DNA of 15,603 nt from Chloroflexaceae bacterium (GCA_025454695.1 JALONX010000171.1:1-15603), one strand, 5' to 3'; positions 2,856 through 15,603 are shown, counted from the first letter of the stretch. The notes: generated by a model not told the origin, from the sequence alone. Made by a program: numbers and translations.

Positions 2856-3275
2856 TTAGGATTGTGACCAGTCTACTAGCAACAACCCTGGAATAGCTTG
2901 AAAATGAGTGCGGTTGCGTGTCACCAGGGTTGCCCCATGGGCAAGTGCAACCGTAGCAATACGCAAATCCTGTGTCCCTACACGAATACCCTGGCTGCGA
3001 AACGTGCTTACCTGGGTATCCAGGTTTGTTGTAAAGTCGTACACGGTAAAGCTAGACAGGTATTCAAATGCCATACGGAACCGTTGGTAGGCAAGAACAC
3101 GAGCCTCACTTGTGTTCGCTACTCGAATCGCGGCCAGCCAGCCGCGCATCTGCTCCTCAACTGTAATAACACTAATACAAATATTCGTTGGCCCTGCTTG
3201 TTGCACACGTTGTCGCACCAGGGGATGACCGCACTGATCCAAACTGACGTGGTCAGTATCAAGCAGAAAGATCAT
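2856..3275 (-). CDS. vapC: VapC-type PIN-domain toxin ribonuclease.
   Basis: MIFLLDTDHVS...VEEQ...TQDLRIATVALAHGATLVTRNRTHF: the N-terminal LLDTD, internal EE, and the D...TRN..HF acidic residues fit a PIN catalytic site. Its start ATGA overlaps the upstream antitoxin stop (3272-3275). Confidence 0.8.
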   Translation of the reverse strand: MIFLLDTDHVSLDQCGHPLVRQRVQQAGPTNICISVITVEEQMRGWLAAIRVANTSEARVLAYQRFRMAFEYLSSFTVYDFTTNLDTQVSTFRSQGIRVGTQDLRIATVALAHGATLVTRNRTHFQAIPGLLLVDWSQS

Positions 3276-3580
3276 TGGCCTGCGTCCTGGTCAAGGGTTT
3301 TACGTTGTTGTTCGATTTCCGATAACATGATGCGCGTTGTTTCATCGTCGGGGAACATGCCTGCGTGACGAGGCCAGACACTAGCGGTGCCGTTGGACGT
3401 TTCATCAAGGGTTATCTGAACAAATTCGACGCCAGCCTGCTGGCGCGAAAGAAGGGCTTGGCGAATTTGTGTTAGGGCATCTTCTCGTGAAGGGGCCTCG
3501 ACTACCAGGTCGGGAAACTGAAGCGCACGAGCGGCATAACGGTTCTTATCGCGGCGGGTCAGTTCAATGTCAACAATCAT
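3272..3580 (-). CDS. Antitoxin partner of VapC. The N-terminal half resembles the HicB/UPF0150 fold; the C-terminal half is unassigned.
   Basis: 102 aa: MIVDIELTRRDKNRYAARALQFPDLVVEAPSREDALTQIRQALL..., which fits the HicB/UPF0150 N-terminal pattern (.Y.A.v.elPg...eG.T.eEAl...r.Al). A strong RBS AGGAGG (revcomp of 3586-3591) lies 5 nt upstream of ATG 3580. There is a 4-nt ATGA overlap with vapC. Confidence 0.55.
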   Translation of the reverse strand: MIVDIELTRRDKNRYAARALQFPDLVVEAPSREDALTQIRQALLSRQQAGVEFVQITLDETSNGTASVWPRHAGMFPDDETTRIMLSEIEQQRKTLDQDAGQ

Positions 3581-5666: not shown

Positions 5667-6380
5667 ATGCGTAAAGCATTATCACAAAAAGATCGCCGTA
5701 AAATGCCCTCGCAGGAGCGATCACGCTTTACAGTTGAAGCAATACTGGATGCGGCTGTTCAGGTTTTCGAGCGCCACGGCTATGCGGCGGGCACCACAGC
5801 ACGCATCGCCGAGCGGGCGGGGGTGTCGGTGGGTTCACTCTACCAATACTTCCCCAACAAGGACGCAATTCTGGTGGCGCTGGTTGATCAACATCTGGCG
5901 GAAGTGCAGACACTGGCGGGCGTGGTGTTTGCCAGGGCGCATGCAGCCGATCTCACTTTGCCCCAGGCCCTGCGCGTGATTGTGGCCGGGTTTGTGGACA
6001 TGCACGCCCTGAACCCGCAGCTGCATCGCTTGCTGTCGGAGGAGGTGGTGTTGCCGGGCGAAGCCCAAGAGAAGCTGGCCAGGTTGAAGCAGTCTATCGT
6101 TGAAGCGGTGGGGCAGCTGCTGGCACGCTACGGGGTGGCAGAGCAGGGAAGCCCTGGACTCACGGCCTATGTGCTGGTGCAAGTGGCCGACCACCTGACG
6201 CACCAGCTGGTGTTGCACCCGCCCGTCCCGCTGACGCCGCAGCAGTGTGTGGACGAGATTCTGCTGGTGGTGTTAGGCTATCTGGGGCAGACAAACCCGT
6301 TTACTCCCCCGCCAGCGTCGCCTGCCCCGCCGCCCAAAGAATGCCCCCCAGCAGATGCTGCTGAAACAGCGGCTCGCTGA
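5667..6380 (+). CDS. TetR/AcrR-family transcriptional regulator.
   Basis: N-terminal HTH: RSRFTVEAILDAAVQVFERHGYAAGTTARIAERAGVSVGSLYQYFPNKDAIL. ATG 5667 is preceded by GAGGTG. It is divergent from the hydrolase gene. The C-terminal ~25 aa (PFTPPPASPAPPPKECPPADAAETAAR) are low-complexity read-through into the antisense of the next gene. Confidence 0.85.
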   Translation: MRKALSQKDRRKMPSQERSRFTVEAILDAAVQVFERHGYAAGTTARIAERAGVSVGSLYQYFPNKDAILVALVDQHLAEVQTLAGVVFARAHAADLTLPQALRVIVAGFVDMHALNPQLHRLLSEEVVLPGEAQEKLARLKQSIVEAVGQLLARYGVAEQGSPGLTAYVLVQVADHLTHQLVLHPPVPLTPQQCVDEILLVVLGYLGQTNPFTPPPASPAPPPKECPPADAAETAAR

Positions 6381-7252: not shown

Positions 7253-7370
7253 CATTGTACACCTTTGGGCAACGTTGCATCATTCATCGTGGTGCGGTTC
7301 CATCGTCCATCGTTTTTCATCGCGGGCGGGTCACAGACCGCGCCCCTACGACGCTGATGTTCGTCGTTCC

Positions 7371-7412
7371 GGTTCTCGGTTCTCGGTTCTTGGTTCCTGG
7401 TGCCTGGTTCTC
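7371..7412. repeat. Heptanucleotide tandem array (GGTTCTC) of about 6 units.
   Basis: ggttctc ggttctc ggttctt ggttcct ggtgcct ggttctc. CATCGT(C) heptamers precede it at 7300-7320. Confidence 0.7.
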
Positions 7413-8971: not shown

Positions 8972-8999
8972 GAGTTACGAGTTACGAGTTACGAGTTAT
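8972..8999. repeat. Heptanucleotide tandem array (GAGTTAC) of 4 units.
   Basis: gagttac gagttac gagttac gagttat, immediately upstream of the crtI-like start codon. Confidence 0.7.
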
Positions 9000-9125
9000 A
9001 AATTATGAACAGGCAAAGGAATTGAAGGAAATGAGGGAAATATGTTGCGTAGTCTGTTCAAAAAGTTTTCTTATGTTTTGCTCTGCTTCAGCCACTGAAT
9101 GAATTCGGCGTCTGAACGGCTCAAA

Positions 9126-9518: not shown

Positions 9519-9559
9519 ACGCAGTACGCAGCACGCAGTACGCAGTTCGCAGTATGTAG
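9519..9559. repeat. Heptanucleotide tandem array (ACGCAGT) of about 6 units.
   Basis: acgcagt acgcagc acgcagt acgcagt tcgcagt atgtagt, immediately after the sirtuin stop codon on the minus strand. Confidence 0.7.
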
Positions 9560-10324
9560 TTACCCTTCCACCTCGCCATCATCTGGCCATGCTGCTGCGA
9601 CGAGCGCCGGGAGCAACGTGCCTGCCTTGCCGTTCAGCCGAAAGAGCGGTGGTGTGGTTTTGTCCTCAACATCAAGATTGATAAAAATTACCGTTGCGCC
9701 AAACTTCAGCGCCACCTGGGGCAGCGAGGCCGCCGGTTCCACCATGCCCGAGGTGCCGATGGAGAAGAAGAAATCGCATGTGGCGCTGGCCTCAATCGCA
9801 TTGTTCAAAGCCTCTTCCGGTAGCCGCTCGCCAAACCAGACCACGCCGGGCCGCAGCGGGCTGCCGCAGATGGTGCAGCGGGGCGGCACCGCCTTGGACT
9901 CATCCCAGGTCTCGGCGGGGTGGCCGTTGGCAAAGCAGCGCGTGCGACGGATGTTGCCATGCAACTCGATCACGGCGCTGCTCCCGGCCAGCTGGTGCAG
10001 GCTGTCCACGTTCTGGGTGATGAGGGTGAGGCGGGGTACTAGCCGTTCCAGAGCCGCCAGGGCGTGGTGGGCCGGGTTGGGCGCGGCTGCTTCCACCAAC
10101 TGCCGCCGCCATGCATACCATTCCCAGACCAACTTCGGGTTGCGCTGAAACGCCTCCGGCGTGGCCAGTTCCTCCGGGCGATACTGCGCCCACAGGCCGG
10201 TCATCGCATCGCGGAAGGTGGGCAGGCCGCTTTCCGCCGAAATGCCCGCGCCAGTCAGTGCCACCACATGGCGAGCCAGACGTAGAGCACTGACTAATTC
10301 GGTTGGTAGATTAAAATCTGACAT
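9560..10324 (-). CDS. cobB: Sir2-family NAD-dependent protein deacylase (CobB-type sirtuin).
   Basis: VALTGAGISAESGLPTFRD, QNVDSLH and ELHG motifs plus a Zn-binding C..C...C..C motif. ATG at 10324-10322. Confidence 0.85.
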   Translation of the reverse strand: MSDFNLPTELVSALRLARHVVALTGAGISAESGLPTFRDAMTGLWAQYRPEELATPEAFQRNPKLVWEWYAWRRQLVEAAAPNPAHHALAALERLVPRLTLITQNVDSLHQLAGSSAVIELHGNIRRTRCFANGHPAETWDESKAVPPRCTICGSPLRPGVVWFGERLPEEALNNAIEASATCDFFFSIGTSGMVEPAASLPQVALKFGATVIFINLDVEDKTTPPLFRLNGKAGTLLPALVAAAWPDDGEVEG

Positions 10325-10385
10325 AAAACGAACGGACTCACTGGGCGTGGTGTGCTATGTTGACCACAGTTTCACCATAACACAG

Positions 10386-11471: not shown

Positions 11472-11500
11472 TTGACATGTGAGTAGATTAGTGTTATTAT
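11472..11500 (+). promoter_or_regulatory. Near-consensus sigma-70 promoter for the MVP-like gene, overlapped by a 17-bp palindromic operator candidate.
   Basis: TTGACA (11472-11477), a 17-nt spacer, then TATTAT (11495-11500). The perfect palindrome AGTGTTAT-T-ATAACACT (11490-11506) overlaps the -10 element. Confidence 0.55.
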
Positions 11501-11594
11501 AACACTATATTAAGTGCCAAGACAACACTATCATTGCAAGTTTCAGATCATTCGAGCTAGCCAGCTAGAACGTTACCGCGTTGCAATGCTGACT

Positions 11595-11622
11595 CAATCT
11601 GCAATCTGCAATCTACAATCTG
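11595..11622. repeat. Heptanucleotide tandem array (CAATCTG) of 4 units in the 5' leader of the MVP-like gene.
   Basis: caatctg caatctg caatcta caatctg, ending 4 nt before the AGGAGG RBS. Confidence 0.7.
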
Positions 11623-11637
11623 CTACAGGAGGTCATT

Positions 11638-13026
11638 ATGCTGTTTCCCCGCCTCTACTTCCTCAAGGAAAACGAACAACTGCTGATTGAAAGCTTCACC
11701 AGCCGACGCGTGGTGAATGGCCCAACCACCTATGTTGCCCCGCCACTGACGCTGGCCACCCGCCGCAGTGGCATGACACTGGAGCCGACCGACTATCTGC
11801 GGGTGCGCAATGTGCTGACGGGCGAACTGCGCAACGAGATCGGGCCGCAGCTCTTCTTCCCCGGCCCCAACGACGAAGTGATGGATCGACTCACGGCCAT
11901 GCCGCTGAAGCAGAACCAGTACATGCGGCTGATTGACCGCCGCAACGGGGTAATCCGGGTGGTGCGCGGCGAGGCCAGCGTAGTGCTTGGCCCAACCGAG
12001 GAGATTCTCGAAAGCGCCCGCGACGGCATCAACATTGACGAACGCACGGCGGTGCTGGTGCGCAACCTGGCCAGCGGCGAGCTGCGCCTTGTTACCACGC
12101 CGCAGGTGTTTGTGCCCGCGCCAACGGAAGAATTGGTGGAGGTGCGCAAGCGGGTGGTGTTGGAAGACCACGAGATGGTGGTGATTAAGGAGCGCAGCGG
12201 GGCCTACCGCTTCCGGCGGGGCAACGACGCCGAGCGTTCGTTTTTCCTTGCGCCCTACGAAGAACTGGTGCAGTTTCGCTGGTCGAGCGGGCTGCACAAA
12301 GACCGCAAGGAGCTGCGAGTAACGCAGATTGACATGCGGCCCAAATTTATGTGGTACGACTTTGAAGTGCGCACCCAGGACAATGTGGAACTCGTCATCG
12401 GCATCACCTTCTTCTGGCAGATTGTGGACGCCGAAACGATGGTGCGCACCACCGACGACATCACCGGCGATGTGTGTGCCCACGCCCGCAGCGTGATCAT
12501 TCAGGCCGTCTCGCAGGCGTCGTTGGAGCGCTTTCTGGCCGGGTTTAATGCGATTATTGCCGATGCTGTGGTGCGCCCCGCCGACCCGTTTTATACCGAA
12601 CGGGGCGTGCTCATCCATGCGGTCGAGGTGCGCTCCATCGTCTGCAAAGACGCAGGCACGCAACGCATTTTGCAGGAGATTATTCAGGAGACGACGAACC
12701 GGCTCAACCGCATTCAGCAGCAGGAAAGCGAAAACGAGGTGCAGCTGCGCCAGATCAACGGCGCGATTGAGGCAGAAGCCTTGCGCCGCCAGTTGCTAGA
12801 AACGCGCCGCGAGGTGGCTCAGCTGGAAGCCCAGATCGCAGGCGGAGCCGAAAGCGAACGGGTGCAGGCCTTTCTGCTCGGGCTAGGCGACCTGCCCGTG
12901 GCCGAGAAGCTGGCCATCTTCACCACGCTGCGCAAGCAGGAGGCGCTTCAGGCCCTCAGCGGCGGCACGGCCCAGCTCTACTTCACCCCCGCCGAGGTGG
13001 ATTTGCACATCGAAAGCCGAACGTGA
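11638..13026 (+). CDS. MVP-repeat / SPFH (band-7)-like protein, a bacterial homologue of the major vault protein. It has five ~42-aa vault-like repeats, a shoulder-like domain and a coiled coil.
   Basis: ATG 11638 with a perfect RBS AGGAGG (11626-11631). Residues 15-200 form five tandem ~42-aa modules sharing h.h...G(E).R...GP..F.P.P.EEh: RRVVNGPTTYVAPP / TGELRNEIGPQLFFPGPNDEVM / NGVIRVVRGEASVVLGPTEEIL / SGELRLVTTPQVFVPAPTEELV / SGAYRFRRGNDAERSFFLAPYEELV. Then comes VELVIGITFFWQIVDAE...SVIIQAVSQASLERFLAGFNAII (SPFH-like), then a heptad-rich helix (NRLNRIQQQESENEVQLRQINGAIEAEALRRQLLETRREVAQLEAQ). Confidence 0.6.
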   Translation: MLFPRLYFLKENEQLLIESFTSRRVVNGPTTYVAPPLTLATRRSGMTLEPTDYLRVRNVLTGELRNEIGPQLFFPGPNDEVMDRLTAMPLKQNQYMRLIDRRNGVIRVVRGEASVVLGPTEEILESARDGINIDERTAVLVRNLASGELRLVTTPQVFVPAPTEELVEVRKRVVLEDHEMVVIKERSGAYRFRRGNDAERSFFLAPYEELVQFRWSSGLHKDRKELRVTQIDMRPKFMWYDFEVRTQDNVELVIGITFFWQIVDAETMVRTTDDITGDVCAHARSVIIQAVSQASLERFLAGFNAIIADAVVRPADPFYTERGVLIHAVEVRSIVCKDAGTQRILQEIIQETTNRLNRIQQQESENEVQLRQINGAIEAEALRRQLLETRREVAQLEAQIAGGAESERVQAFLLGLGDLPVAEKLAIFTTLRKQEALQALSGGTAQLYFTPAEVDLHIESRT

Positions 13027-13100
13027 GGAAATTAAAGGAAATAAAGGAAATGGCACAACGATGCAATCCCCCTCATTTCCTTTATCTCCCTCACTTCCCT
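13026..13100 (+). terminator. Imperfect AT-rich hairpin immediately after the MVP-like stop codon; a candidate terminator or attenuator.
   Basis: A perfect 12-bp core (13041-13052 pairing with 13074-13085) is extended by an imperfect ~26-bp stem around a 21-nt loop. There is no clean U-tract on the plus strand. Confidence 0.3.
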
Positions 13101-13106
13101 GCGCCT

Positions 13107-13140
13107 TACGCAGTACGCAGTACGCATCATCGCTCATCGT
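13107..13140. repeat. Heptanucleotide arrays: TACGCAG x3 followed by TCATCG(C) x2.
   Basis: tacgcag tacgcag tacgca tcatcgc tcatcg. These are the same two heptamer families seen at 9519-9559 and 7300-7320. Confidence 0.6.
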
Positions 13141-13146
13141 TTTCCG

Positions 13147-13175
13147 TTGACACTGCCCTATGGGAGAGCTATAAT
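13147..13175 (+). promoter_or_regulatory. Perfect-consensus sigma-70 promoter for the Fur-family gene.
   Basis: TTGACA (13147-13152), a 17-nt spacer, then TATAAT (13170-13175). The imperfect inverted repeat CCTATGGGAG (13158-13167) / CTCCTATAGG (13189-13198) flanks the -10 element and predicted TSS. Confidence 0.55.
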
Positions 13176-13203: not shown

Positions 13204-13677
13204 ATGGAACATTCCGACATGATTCAGCATCTCCGGGCGCAAGGGCACCGGCTCACGCCACAGCGTCGCCTGATCATCGAGGTGCTGCAAGGCAGCGATC
13301 ACCACCTCAGCGCCGATGAGATCGCCCAGCAGATTACCCTGCGCTACCCAACGATTAAGCTCGACCAGGCGACGGTCTACCGCACCCTGAACTGGCTCCA
13401 CGGCACAGGCCTGGTGAGCGCCACATGGCTCGGCCAGAGCCACATGGTCTACGCCGATGCGGGCCGCCACCAGCACCACCACCTGATCTGTGTGCAGTGC
13501 CAGGCCAGCATCGAGGCCAACCCGCAGCTGTTTGAACCGCTGCGCGAGTCGCTGCTGCGCCACTACGGCTTCGCCGCCCGCCTCGACCACCTGGCGCTAT
13601 TCGGGCTGTGTGCGGCGTGCCAGCAGGCGGCAGGGGGGCAGCTTTTTGCCACAGAGAACACAGAGGACACAGAGTAG
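13204..13677 (+). CDS. Fur-family metalloregulator (Fur/Zur/PerR-like).
   Basis: LTPQRRLIIEVLQGSDHHLSADEIAQQI....IKLDQATVYRTLNWLHGTGLV...HHHLICVQCQ is a Fur-family winged helix with an HHH..C..C metal site. ATG 13204. The track start at 13147 is a TTG that overlaps the promoter. Confidence 0.8.
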   Translation: MEHSDMIQHLRAQGHRLTPQRRLIIEVLQGSDHHLSADEIAQQITLRYPTIKLDQATVYRTLNWLHGTGLVSATWLGQSHMVYADAGRHQHHHLICVQCQASIEANPQLFEPLRESLLRHYGFAARLDHLALFGLCAACQQAAGGQLFATENTEDTE

Positions 13678-15400: not shown

Positions 15401-15603
15401 CAGTTTGCAGGACTCAGTTGGCAGTTGGCAGCTGATTCATAGCAGAACCACGAACCAGTAGCTGGACACATACTGCGCAGTTTGCAGGACTCAGTTGGCA
15501 GTTGGCAGCTGGTTCATAGCAGAACCACGAACCAGTAGCTGGACACATACTGCGCAGTTTGCAGGACTCAGTTGGCAGTTGGCAGCTGCTTTTTAACACA
15601 ACC
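15401..15603. repeat. 77-bp tandem direct repeat, at least 2.4 copies, running off the window end.
   Basis: The unit cagtttgcaggactcagttggcagttggcagctg(a/g)ttcatagcagaaccacgaaccagtagctggacacatactgcg sits at 15401-15477 and 15478-15554, with a partial third copy at 15555-15588. There is a single mismatch, and the unit contains an internal CAGTTGG x2 motif. Confidence 0.8.

Follow-up and report, generated by a model that had tools for sequence, protein, structure and literature searches.

The closest described systems are those of NrtR, a repressor whose DNA binding is suppressed in vitro by ADP-ribose, with some members of the family responding to related nucleotides (Rodionov et al. 2008; PMC2330246). 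Most NrtR sites are palindromes of 21 bp built around a GT-N7-AC core; they overlap promoter elements or fall between the promoter and the start codon, and the tandem sites at Shewanella prs-nadV are both bound in electrophoretic mobility-shift assays (PMC2330246). Targets include nadA, nadE and nadM-nadV in Synechocystis, prs-nadV in Shewanella oneidensis, and nrtR-pncA, pncB and nadCAB in Roseiflexus, a member of the Chloroflexi that has both nrtR and an NrtR regulon (PMC2330246). The stretch of DNA considered here, a complete 15,603-bp contig of a Chloroflexaceae metagenome-assembled genome (MAG) and hereafter called the window, contains a palindrome over the -10 element of a gene for a major vault protein (MVP)-like member of the SPFH superfamily. 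This palindrome is likely to be the promoter-proximal one of two tandem operators, O1 and O2, for a repressor of the NrtR family. Judged by the motif, the regulator is most likely NrtR, and not the neighbouring Fur-family protein.

The locus shares with the NrtR operators of nicotinamide adenine dinucleotide (NAD) genes the 21-bp GT-N7-AC palindrome, the overlap with a promoter and the tandem use of sites; those operators act by repression that is relieved by ADP-ribose, and the same is proposed here (PMC2330246). Unlike them, the target is an MVP-like SPFH gene rather than a gene of NAD biosynthesis, salvage or transport, no nrtR lies nearby, and the operators are putative. A second comparison is with autoregulated nrtR operons, such as that of MsNrtR in Mycobacterium smegmatis (PMC6800001): the tandem motif likewise precedes nrtR in at least 19 metagenome loci, whereas at the window the regulator lies outside the regulated unit. 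Closest in content is an SPFH/NAD-kinase-like/nrtR operon treated below, in which an SPFH-superfamily gene also stands directly behind tandem AGTGT-N7-ACACT sites, but nrtR is part of the operon and the SPFH protein is of about 320 aa. The regulator family, the operator type and the use of an NrtR operator pair as a switch are known; the target gene is new. A literature search returned no paper naming NrtR together with SPFH. The NrtR paper itself does not mention SPFH, band 7 or stomatin (PMC2330246), and a 2019 preprint on bacterial MVP homologues is silent on regulation and on NAD (10.1101/872010).

The product of the open reading frame in question is identical to 'MUD01_10405 [Chloroflexaceae bacterium]' and has Band_7/SPFH and MVP_shoulder domains, plus a weak, sub-threshold vault repeat (Vault_3); this exact gene is carried by a single contig. 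A preliminary description of this DNA had claimed a near-consensus sigma-70-type promoter, TTGACA-17-TATTAT, for the gene. This promoter is present, with a 17 nt spacer, its position is conserved in orthologous loci, and a TG that makes the -10 an extended one can be added to the description (Table 1). In a consensus scan it scores 11/12, second best in the window, which holds 15 promoter-like sites against 4.9 +/- 2.3 in shuffles. The perfect inverted repeat reported on the -10 is also present but is longer by one base on each side than had been noted, forming a 9-1-9 palindrome, TAGTGTTAT-T-ATAACACTA. It is the sole perfect inverted repeat in the 15.6-kb window with arms of at least 8 and a loop of at most 3, and the 17-mer palindrome pattern, at up to three mismatches, occurs once in the window against 0.01 expected. 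In Markov simulations about 25 % of such windows contain a perfect palindrome with arms of at least 9, so the palindrome alone is weak evidence; its evidential weight is taken to lie in its conservation, not its existence.

Table 1. Positions of features in the window, counted from its first nucleotide
Feature	Position	Strand	Basis or remark
-35 hexamer TTGACA, MVP-like gene promoter	11472..11477	+	sequence; same spacing to first operator in orthologues
Extended -10, TGtTATTAT (TG 11492-11493; hexamer TATTAT 11495-11500)	11492..11500	+	promoter scan
Perfect 9-1-9 palindrome	11489-11507		
Predicted transcription start, A, 7 nt past the -10	11507..11507	+	inferred from promoter geometry
Operator O1, 21-bp NrtR-type site, TT-AGTGT-TATTATA-ACACT-AT	11488..11508	.	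palindrome, conserved half-sites, motif match
Operator O2, weaker NrtR-type site, TA-AGTGC-CAAGACA-ACACT-AT	11511..11531	.	1 mismatch; second site in orthologues
Imperfect core of O2, AGTGC-CAAGACA-ACACT	11513-11529		
Leader, 131 nt, no significant structure	11507..11637	+	folding, Rfam, orthologue comparison
Heptamer array, CAATCTG x4.1, third copy CAATCTA	11595..11623	+	tandem-repeat search; probably not regulatory
Shine-Dalgarno AGGAGG, 5 nt before ATG 11638	11627..11632	+	sequence
Regulated gene, 462-aa MVP-like SPFH-superfamily protein	11638..13026	+	domain search
Minus-strand promoter-like site: TTGTCT 11525-11520, 18 nt, TATAAT 11501-11496, TG; predicted start 11489	11496..11525	-	promoter scan; function doubtful
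EamA gene start, GTG (NCBI), Shine-Dalgarno GGAGAAGGAG upstream	11327	-	
Upstream element AGCGCAAGAAnCGGA of EamA gene	11401-11387	-	shared with EamA orthologues
TAnnnT hexamer following it	11365-11360	-	shared with EamA orthologues
CobB-type deacylase gene	9560-10324	-	
Fur-family gene	13205-13677		
Intergenic period-7 arrays (GTTCTCG, GAGTTAC, ACGCAGT, CAATCTG, TACGCAG, CAGTTGG)	7366-7396, 8972-8998, 9519-9554, 11595-11623, 13107-13126, 15492-15512		

The recognised element is presumably the 21-bp motif wwAGTGT-N7-ACACTww, with the outer half-sites read by the protein. Both O1 and O2 have the length and the GT-N7-AC core of an NrtR site. Relative to the predicted start, the core of O1 occupies -17 to -1, across the extended -10, and that of O2 occupies +7 to +23, 23 bp downstream of O1 and two helical turns from it. 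The pair is thus placed as expected of a repressor, overlapping the promoter and lying between promoter and start codon, and the same arrangement is seen in orthologues. The seven inner bases of O1 are the -10 itself, and its GTGT half-site provides the TG of the extended -10. The perfect inner symmetry at this locus is due to the half-sites together with a near-symmetric -10 hexamer; as a practical point, a protein site and a -10 element combine to make up the 'perfect palindrome'. The earlier proposal that the palindrome is a repressor operator is supported, its outer half-sites being kept at orthologous loci (see below), but the element to be recognised is the 21-bp motif. Only one operator had been described, with O2 overlooked. 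A GTGT half-site followed by an AT-rich centre has the same form as a TGn plus -10 arrangement, a resemblance that could account for easy fusion of promoter and operator.

Orthologous loci were drawn from species-representative genomes (72 MVP-gene loci) and metagenome assemblies (6), giving 78, and half-site matches were counted in 73 loci with a total of 782 kb. AGTGT-N7-ACACT, with at most one mismatch, is found within approximately 200 nt upstream of the orthologous gene in seven independent loci (the window, L001, L002/L004, L003, L006, L073 and L075-78), with 12 sites between them. The site is borne by the closest relatives, with 63-69 % protein identity to the MVP-like protein: Chloroflexales bacterium ZM16-3, Oscillochloris sp. 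ZM17-4, two Oscillochloris/Chloroflexales MAGs, two metagenome lineages and an Ardenticatenales MAG. Matches at this stringency number 21 in the 782 kb, with about 19 in shuffles, and 12 of the 21 fall in these seven short upstream regions. Two copies of the site, 21-23 bp apart from start to start, are present in five of the seven lineages (L002/L004, L003, L006 and L075-78 besides the window); L001 and L073 have a single site each. In every case the -10 hexamer (TATAAT, TATACT or TATTAT) falls inside the first copy, with a -35 of the form cTTGcA or TTGACA at a conserved distance from that copy. No two lineages have the same inner 7 nt in the second copy (CAAGACA, CGCGGTA, CAAACAA, CAGTATA, GAAATGA), so the outer half-sites are the conserved part. 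Absence of the palindrome from orthologous upstream regions had been named in advance as evidence against an operator; on inspection, the outer half-sites are kept in seven independent loci. Likewise, the statement that no regulator is encoded beside the MVP-like gene agrees with the comparison. The flanking genes differ from locus to locus among the site-bearing loci, so conservation of the site is tied to the MVP-like gene and the regulator would act in trans.

In L002 and L004 (Chloroflexales ZM16-3 and Oscillochloris ZM17-4; 5935-5972) the two operators form one perfect 38-bp palindrome, AGTGCTATACTGACACTAATTAGTGTCAGTATAGCACT, in which each operator mirrors the other, inner bases included. 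An RNA hairpin formed by O1 and O2 was considered and rejected, as the inner bases differ elsewhere without compensation and the fold of this region in the window does not stand out. Matches to GTGTCATTCTGACAC in Riflebacteria, approximately 3 kb downstream of the gene, are irrelevant; they lie within the coding sequence of a sigma-54-type activator (…VILCHSDTL…).

The assignment to NrtR draws on the genes that follow the motif elsewhere. A metagenome collection was scanned with the tandem pattern AGTGY-N7-RCACT-N4-6-AGTGY-N7-RCACT, which is present in at least 120 loci. About half of the matches listed are unrelated tandem repeats, and in 53 of the 120 loci listed the site pair lies no more than 200 nt upstream of nrtR, nadB, pncB, pnuC or an SPFH gene. 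A gene for an SPFH protein of about 320 aa stands behind the pair in at least 22 loci, an nrtR-type gene (about 220-230 aa) in at least 19, nadB in at least 9, pncB in at least 2 and pnuC in at least 1. By Pfam, the proteins of about 220-230 aa consist of NUDIX and NrtR_WHD (PF21906) domains, and their best NCBIfam match is 'ADPR responsive transcriptional repressor'; the other genes encode FAD_binding_2 (L-aspartate-oxidase-type flavoproteins), NAPRTase (nicotinate phosphoribosyltransferases), NMN_transporter (nicotinamide mononucleotide/nicotinamide riboside) and Band_7 proteins. Many of the loci listed have a common layout: TTGACA, site 1, a TAATAT-like -10, site 2, GGAGG and ATG. By exact-sequence look-up, the nadB loci with the tandem motif belong to Ktedonobacteraceae, in the Chloroflexota, the same phylum as the window. 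One large nrtR group is from Planctomycetes, and the best 120 matches to a planctomycete-type NrtR query were all close relatives.

Positions flanking the core, left free by the search pattern, were compared among NAD-linked, SPFH-linked and MVP-linked sites. At position -1, T has a frequency of 0.74, 0.77 and 0.75 in these three groups and A of 0.25, 0.22 and 0.25, with C and G together at about 0; at position -2, T has a frequency of 0.62, 0.56 and 0.54. Because these unconstrained flanks agree, the motif upstream of the MVP-like genes is the same 21-bp motif as that of the NAD-linked sites.

Among the metagenome loci with tandem sites there is a conserved operon, either SPFH (about 320 aa)-X (about 306 aa)-nrtR or nrtR-SPFH-X. 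The first order is found in L080 (7221-9820), L090, L096, L153, L169, L192 and L196, and the three genes are present in another order in L154, L159 and L191. The L080 operon was traced by exact-sequence look-up to Pyrinomonadaceae, of the Acidobacteriota. No Pfam domain is recognised in X, whose NCBIfam match to NAD kinase is weak (E 4e-6). Between the SPFH protein of about 320 aa and the 462-aa MVP-like protein, BLASTP gives an E value of 0.099 and hhalign a probability of 11 %, so that the two appear distantly related at best. Since these two types of SPFH protein are barely related, SPFH-superfamily genes appear to have been put under NrtR control more than once. In L073 (7459-9972) the MVP-like gene is closely followed, on the same strand, by a gene for a small generic Nudix hydrolase and then by one of the AMP-nucleosidase/nucleoside-phosphorylase family. 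These neighbours are suggestive of nucleotide or ADP-ribose salvage, but as a single case with weak family assignments they are not decisive.

A mechanism can be proposed in which NrtR, presumably encoded elsewhere in the genome, binds O1 and O2 as dimers and blocks RNA polymerase at the -10 and start region, leaving the MVP-like SPFH gene silent. As ADP-ribose, or a related nucleotide from NAD breakdown or a precursor, builds up, NrtR would leave the DNA, and the near-consensus promoter (11/12 plus TG) would fire, derepressing the gene. Several observations weigh against this proposal. O2 has C where NAD-linked sites almost always have T and may be a weak candidate for binding. Neither the 15.6-kb contig nor the 78 MVP-gene loci contain an nrtR gene, and the presence of the regulator in the lineage rests on the Roseiflexus literature and the Ktedonobacteraceae nadB sites. 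The site was not found in the more distant orthologues (Herpetosiphon, Anaerolineae, cyanobacteria, Riflebacteria), so control by the operator is clade-specific. No connection is known between the MVP-like gene and NAD metabolism. Additionally, the NrtR family includes paralogues that have other effectors and regulons, among them the pentose regulators of Bacteroidetes (PMC2330246; PMC4666351), so the effector at the MVP-like gene could differ.

In one alternative the bound protein is another regulator, either a paralogue from the NrtR family that has its own effector or a dimeric winged-helix/helix-turn-helix repressor that is unrelated to it and by chance reads AGTGT-N7-ACACT, and the gene would answer to a non-NAD signal. 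Recruitment of NrtR-family members to non-NAD regulons (PMC2330246; PMC4666351) is in its favour, as are the lack of an nrtR gene near any MVP-gene locus and a target that is not an NAD gene. This alternative is nevertheless judged unlikely: the motif agrees with NAD-linked sites in its core, its free flanks, its 21-bp length and its tandem 21-23-bp arrangement, and in other phyla SPFH genes share operons with nrtR itself. Far less plausible still, and the least probable of the readings considered, is the earlier suggestion that the operator belongs to the downstream Fur-family protein, which would make the MVP-like gene metal- or peroxide-responsive. The Fur-family gene does lie only 180 bp downstream of the MVP-like gene, and the inner part of the palindrome, GTGTTAT-T-ATAACAC, has a 7-1-7 shape resembling Fur-family boxes, which are of the type TGATAAT-N-ATTATCA. 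However, fur adjoins the MVP-like gene in the window and in no other site-bearing locus. The inner bases on which such a box depends vary, with only AGTGT...ACACT kept, and the motif precedes nrtR and NAD genes and not metal genes. At the fur promoter itself there is no similar site, just a two-mismatch match at 13138-13154 that is at chance level.

With NrtR thus preferred among the candidate repressors, two explanations that dispense with a repressor or shift attention to the leader need to be considered. The palindrome could be a by-product of a bidirectional promoter serving the MVP-like gene to the right and, to the left, the divergent genes for an EamA/DMT transporter and a CobB-type NAD-dependent protein deacylase. 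A minus-strand promoter-like site, absent from the preliminary description, does use the palindrome of the plus-strand promoter: the two -10 hexamers are one base out of register, so that -11A and -7T pair reciprocally, both strands have TGn, the minus-strand -35 TTGTCT stands at 18 nt, and the predicted starts, both A, are 18 bp apart and form the end bases of the palindrome. Reciprocal overlap of -10 hexamers with starts 18 bp apart is the commonest geometry of bidirectional sigma-70 promoters (Warman et al. 2021; PMC10268837), and the locus agrees with it in geometry only, both starts being predicted. The symmetry reaches further than a shared -10 would require, and the additional bases are conserved as half-sites for a protein; AGTGT/ACACT is kept where the upstream gene is co-directional rather than divergent, and O2 has these half-sites without a -10-like interior. 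EamA orthologues (75-79 % identical) have neither the operator site nor a Sir2 neighbour. In several Chloroflexota contigs (L199-L205) they have an upstream element of their own, AGCGCAAGAAnCGGA, followed about 24 nt on by a TAnnnT hexamer. The window has both of these as well (11401-11360), so that a separate, conserved promoter-like element stands before the divergent gene; it is probably a promoter or a regulator site belonging to the transporter. A bidirectional promoter without a repressor is therefore considered very unlikely, and leftward transcription from the palindrome is possible but unsupported. The operator and bidirectional readings are compatible, and the operator may also be a bidirectional core. 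The heptamer array in the leader offers a further alternative. The preliminary description correctly placed CAATCTG x4 just before the ribosome-binding site, in a leader estimated at about 130 nt, and suggested that changes in copy number could modulate the leader in the manner of phase variation. On that reading the array would be a contingency tract that adjusts the leader and thereby expression of the gene. Four tandem heptamers do end 3 nt before the Shine-Dalgarno sequence, and part of the array can pair with 11533-11548. Contingency tracts would be expected inside a reading frame or in the spacer that separates the -35 from the -10, whereas this array is in the untranslated leader, at +89 to +117, downstream of the promoter. 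It is one of six arrays of differing unit in the window, with nine in an Oscillochloris locus and three in L006, and so is not specific to the locus. No period-7 array is present in the orthologous MVP-gene leaders. The leader folds no better than shuffles (minimum free energy -26 kcal/mol, z = +0.95). Phase variation is thus unsupported and highly improbable, though by a hair it is less implausible than control by the Fur-family protein.

The leader as a whole does not resemble a cis-regulatory RNA of the riboswitch or attenuator kind. It has no unusually stable fold and no Rfam family match above chance, and orthologous leaders, of approximately 40-190 nt, are unrelated in sequence. Heptamer arrays take up most of the intergenic spacers in the right half of the window, and two of their units, ACGCAGT and TACGCAG, are rotations of one another. 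The nine arrays of Oscillochloris ZM17-4 (L004) are contained in a 13-kb locus, and most non-Chloroflexales loci have 0-2. The array before the MVP-like gene is best interpreted as one example of the intergenic microsatellites that are widespread in this lineage and not as part of the switch, and heptamer arrays in this lineage should not be taken as locus-specific signals. A parallel exists in the short tandemly repeated repetitive (STRR) heptamers of filamentous cyanobacteria, which are likewise tandem heptamers of differing unit scattered in the intergenic DNA of a filamentous phototroph lineage; the phylum here is Chloroflexota, and the unit sequences differ. We know of no function either for STRR repeats or for these arrays. 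Just past the CorA gene there are 2.4 copies, 99 % identical, of a 77-bp unit (15401-15588), which itself includes CAGTTGG heptamers. Additionally, two intergenic tandem repeats of 9-10 bp have a common core AGGAAAT: AAGGAAATG x2.9 (9016-9041) and AGGAAATTAA x2.7 (13026-13051), the latter beginning at the stop codon of the MVP-like gene.

Other known operator types were compared with the site pair and set aside. The sequence ACACTATATTAAGTGC between the two sites resembles an NrdR box, which is of the type ACAC-N8-GTGT. However, the spacing that would form it varies (4 or 6 nt) in orthologues where AGTGT-N7-ACACT is constant, and L001 and L073 have a single site. The CIRCE/HrcA, HAIR/HspR, cyanobacterial or Gram-positive LexA and YtrA boxes misfit in half-site or spacing: HAIR/HspR has the 7-7-7 shape seen here with different half-sites, and YtrA is AGTGTA-N13-TACACT. 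None of these accounts for the nrtR, nadB and pncB context.

We know of no function or mode of regulation established for bacterial MVP homologues. If NrtR controls these genes, their expression is tied to NAD/ADP-ribose status, which would give a concrete condition for study, and the NrtR regulon would extend past metabolism to membrane or cage-forming proteins in several phyla. On a bolder reading, less likely than not, the NrtR regulon that responds to ADP-ribose would include SPFH-superfamily scaffold or cage proteins as a genuine and repeated component, with a vault- or flotillin-like assembly switched on during NAD breakdown. Its cases would be the MVP-like protein in Chloroflexales and, in Acidobacteria and other phyla, the SPFH protein of about 320 aa whose gene would be transcribed together with those for the NAD-kinase-like protein and NrtR. 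NAD might be broken down, for example, in phage defence by NADases, through the activity of sirtuins or ADP-ribosyltransferases, or after DNA damage, and this reading would provide a first physiological handle on bacterial MVP homologues. Eukaryotic vaults associate with the poly(ADP-ribose) polymerase PARP4, a parallel to a bacterial NrtR-MVP link that is tempting but unproven.

Several further observations concern the neighbouring genes. The CobB-type deacylase gene follows the EamA gene, which places it two genes away from the NrtR-type sites, and this adjacency is not conserved. An NAD-consuming enzyme under NrtR control would make sense, but EamA-CobB as a co-regulated divergent operon was rejected, given that the orthologues lack the site and the Sir2 neighbour and have their own upstream element. 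A two-mismatch site before the CobB/Sir2 gene (10368-10384) is no better than chance and has C/G at flank positions where true sites never have them. The best promoter in the window is a perfect TTGACA-17-TATAAT (12/12) at 13147-13175, which precedes the likely ATG (13205) of the Fur-family gene by 30 nt; for the product of that gene, NCBIfam does not distinguish Fur, PerR and Zur. Elsewhere on the contig, and unrelated to the operators, genes at 1208-1897, 2856-3580 and 5667-6380 encode a Uma2-family endonuclease, a PIN-domain protein and a TetR-family regulator. The PIN-domain protein has a small upstream partner, with which it likely forms a toxin-antitoxin pair.

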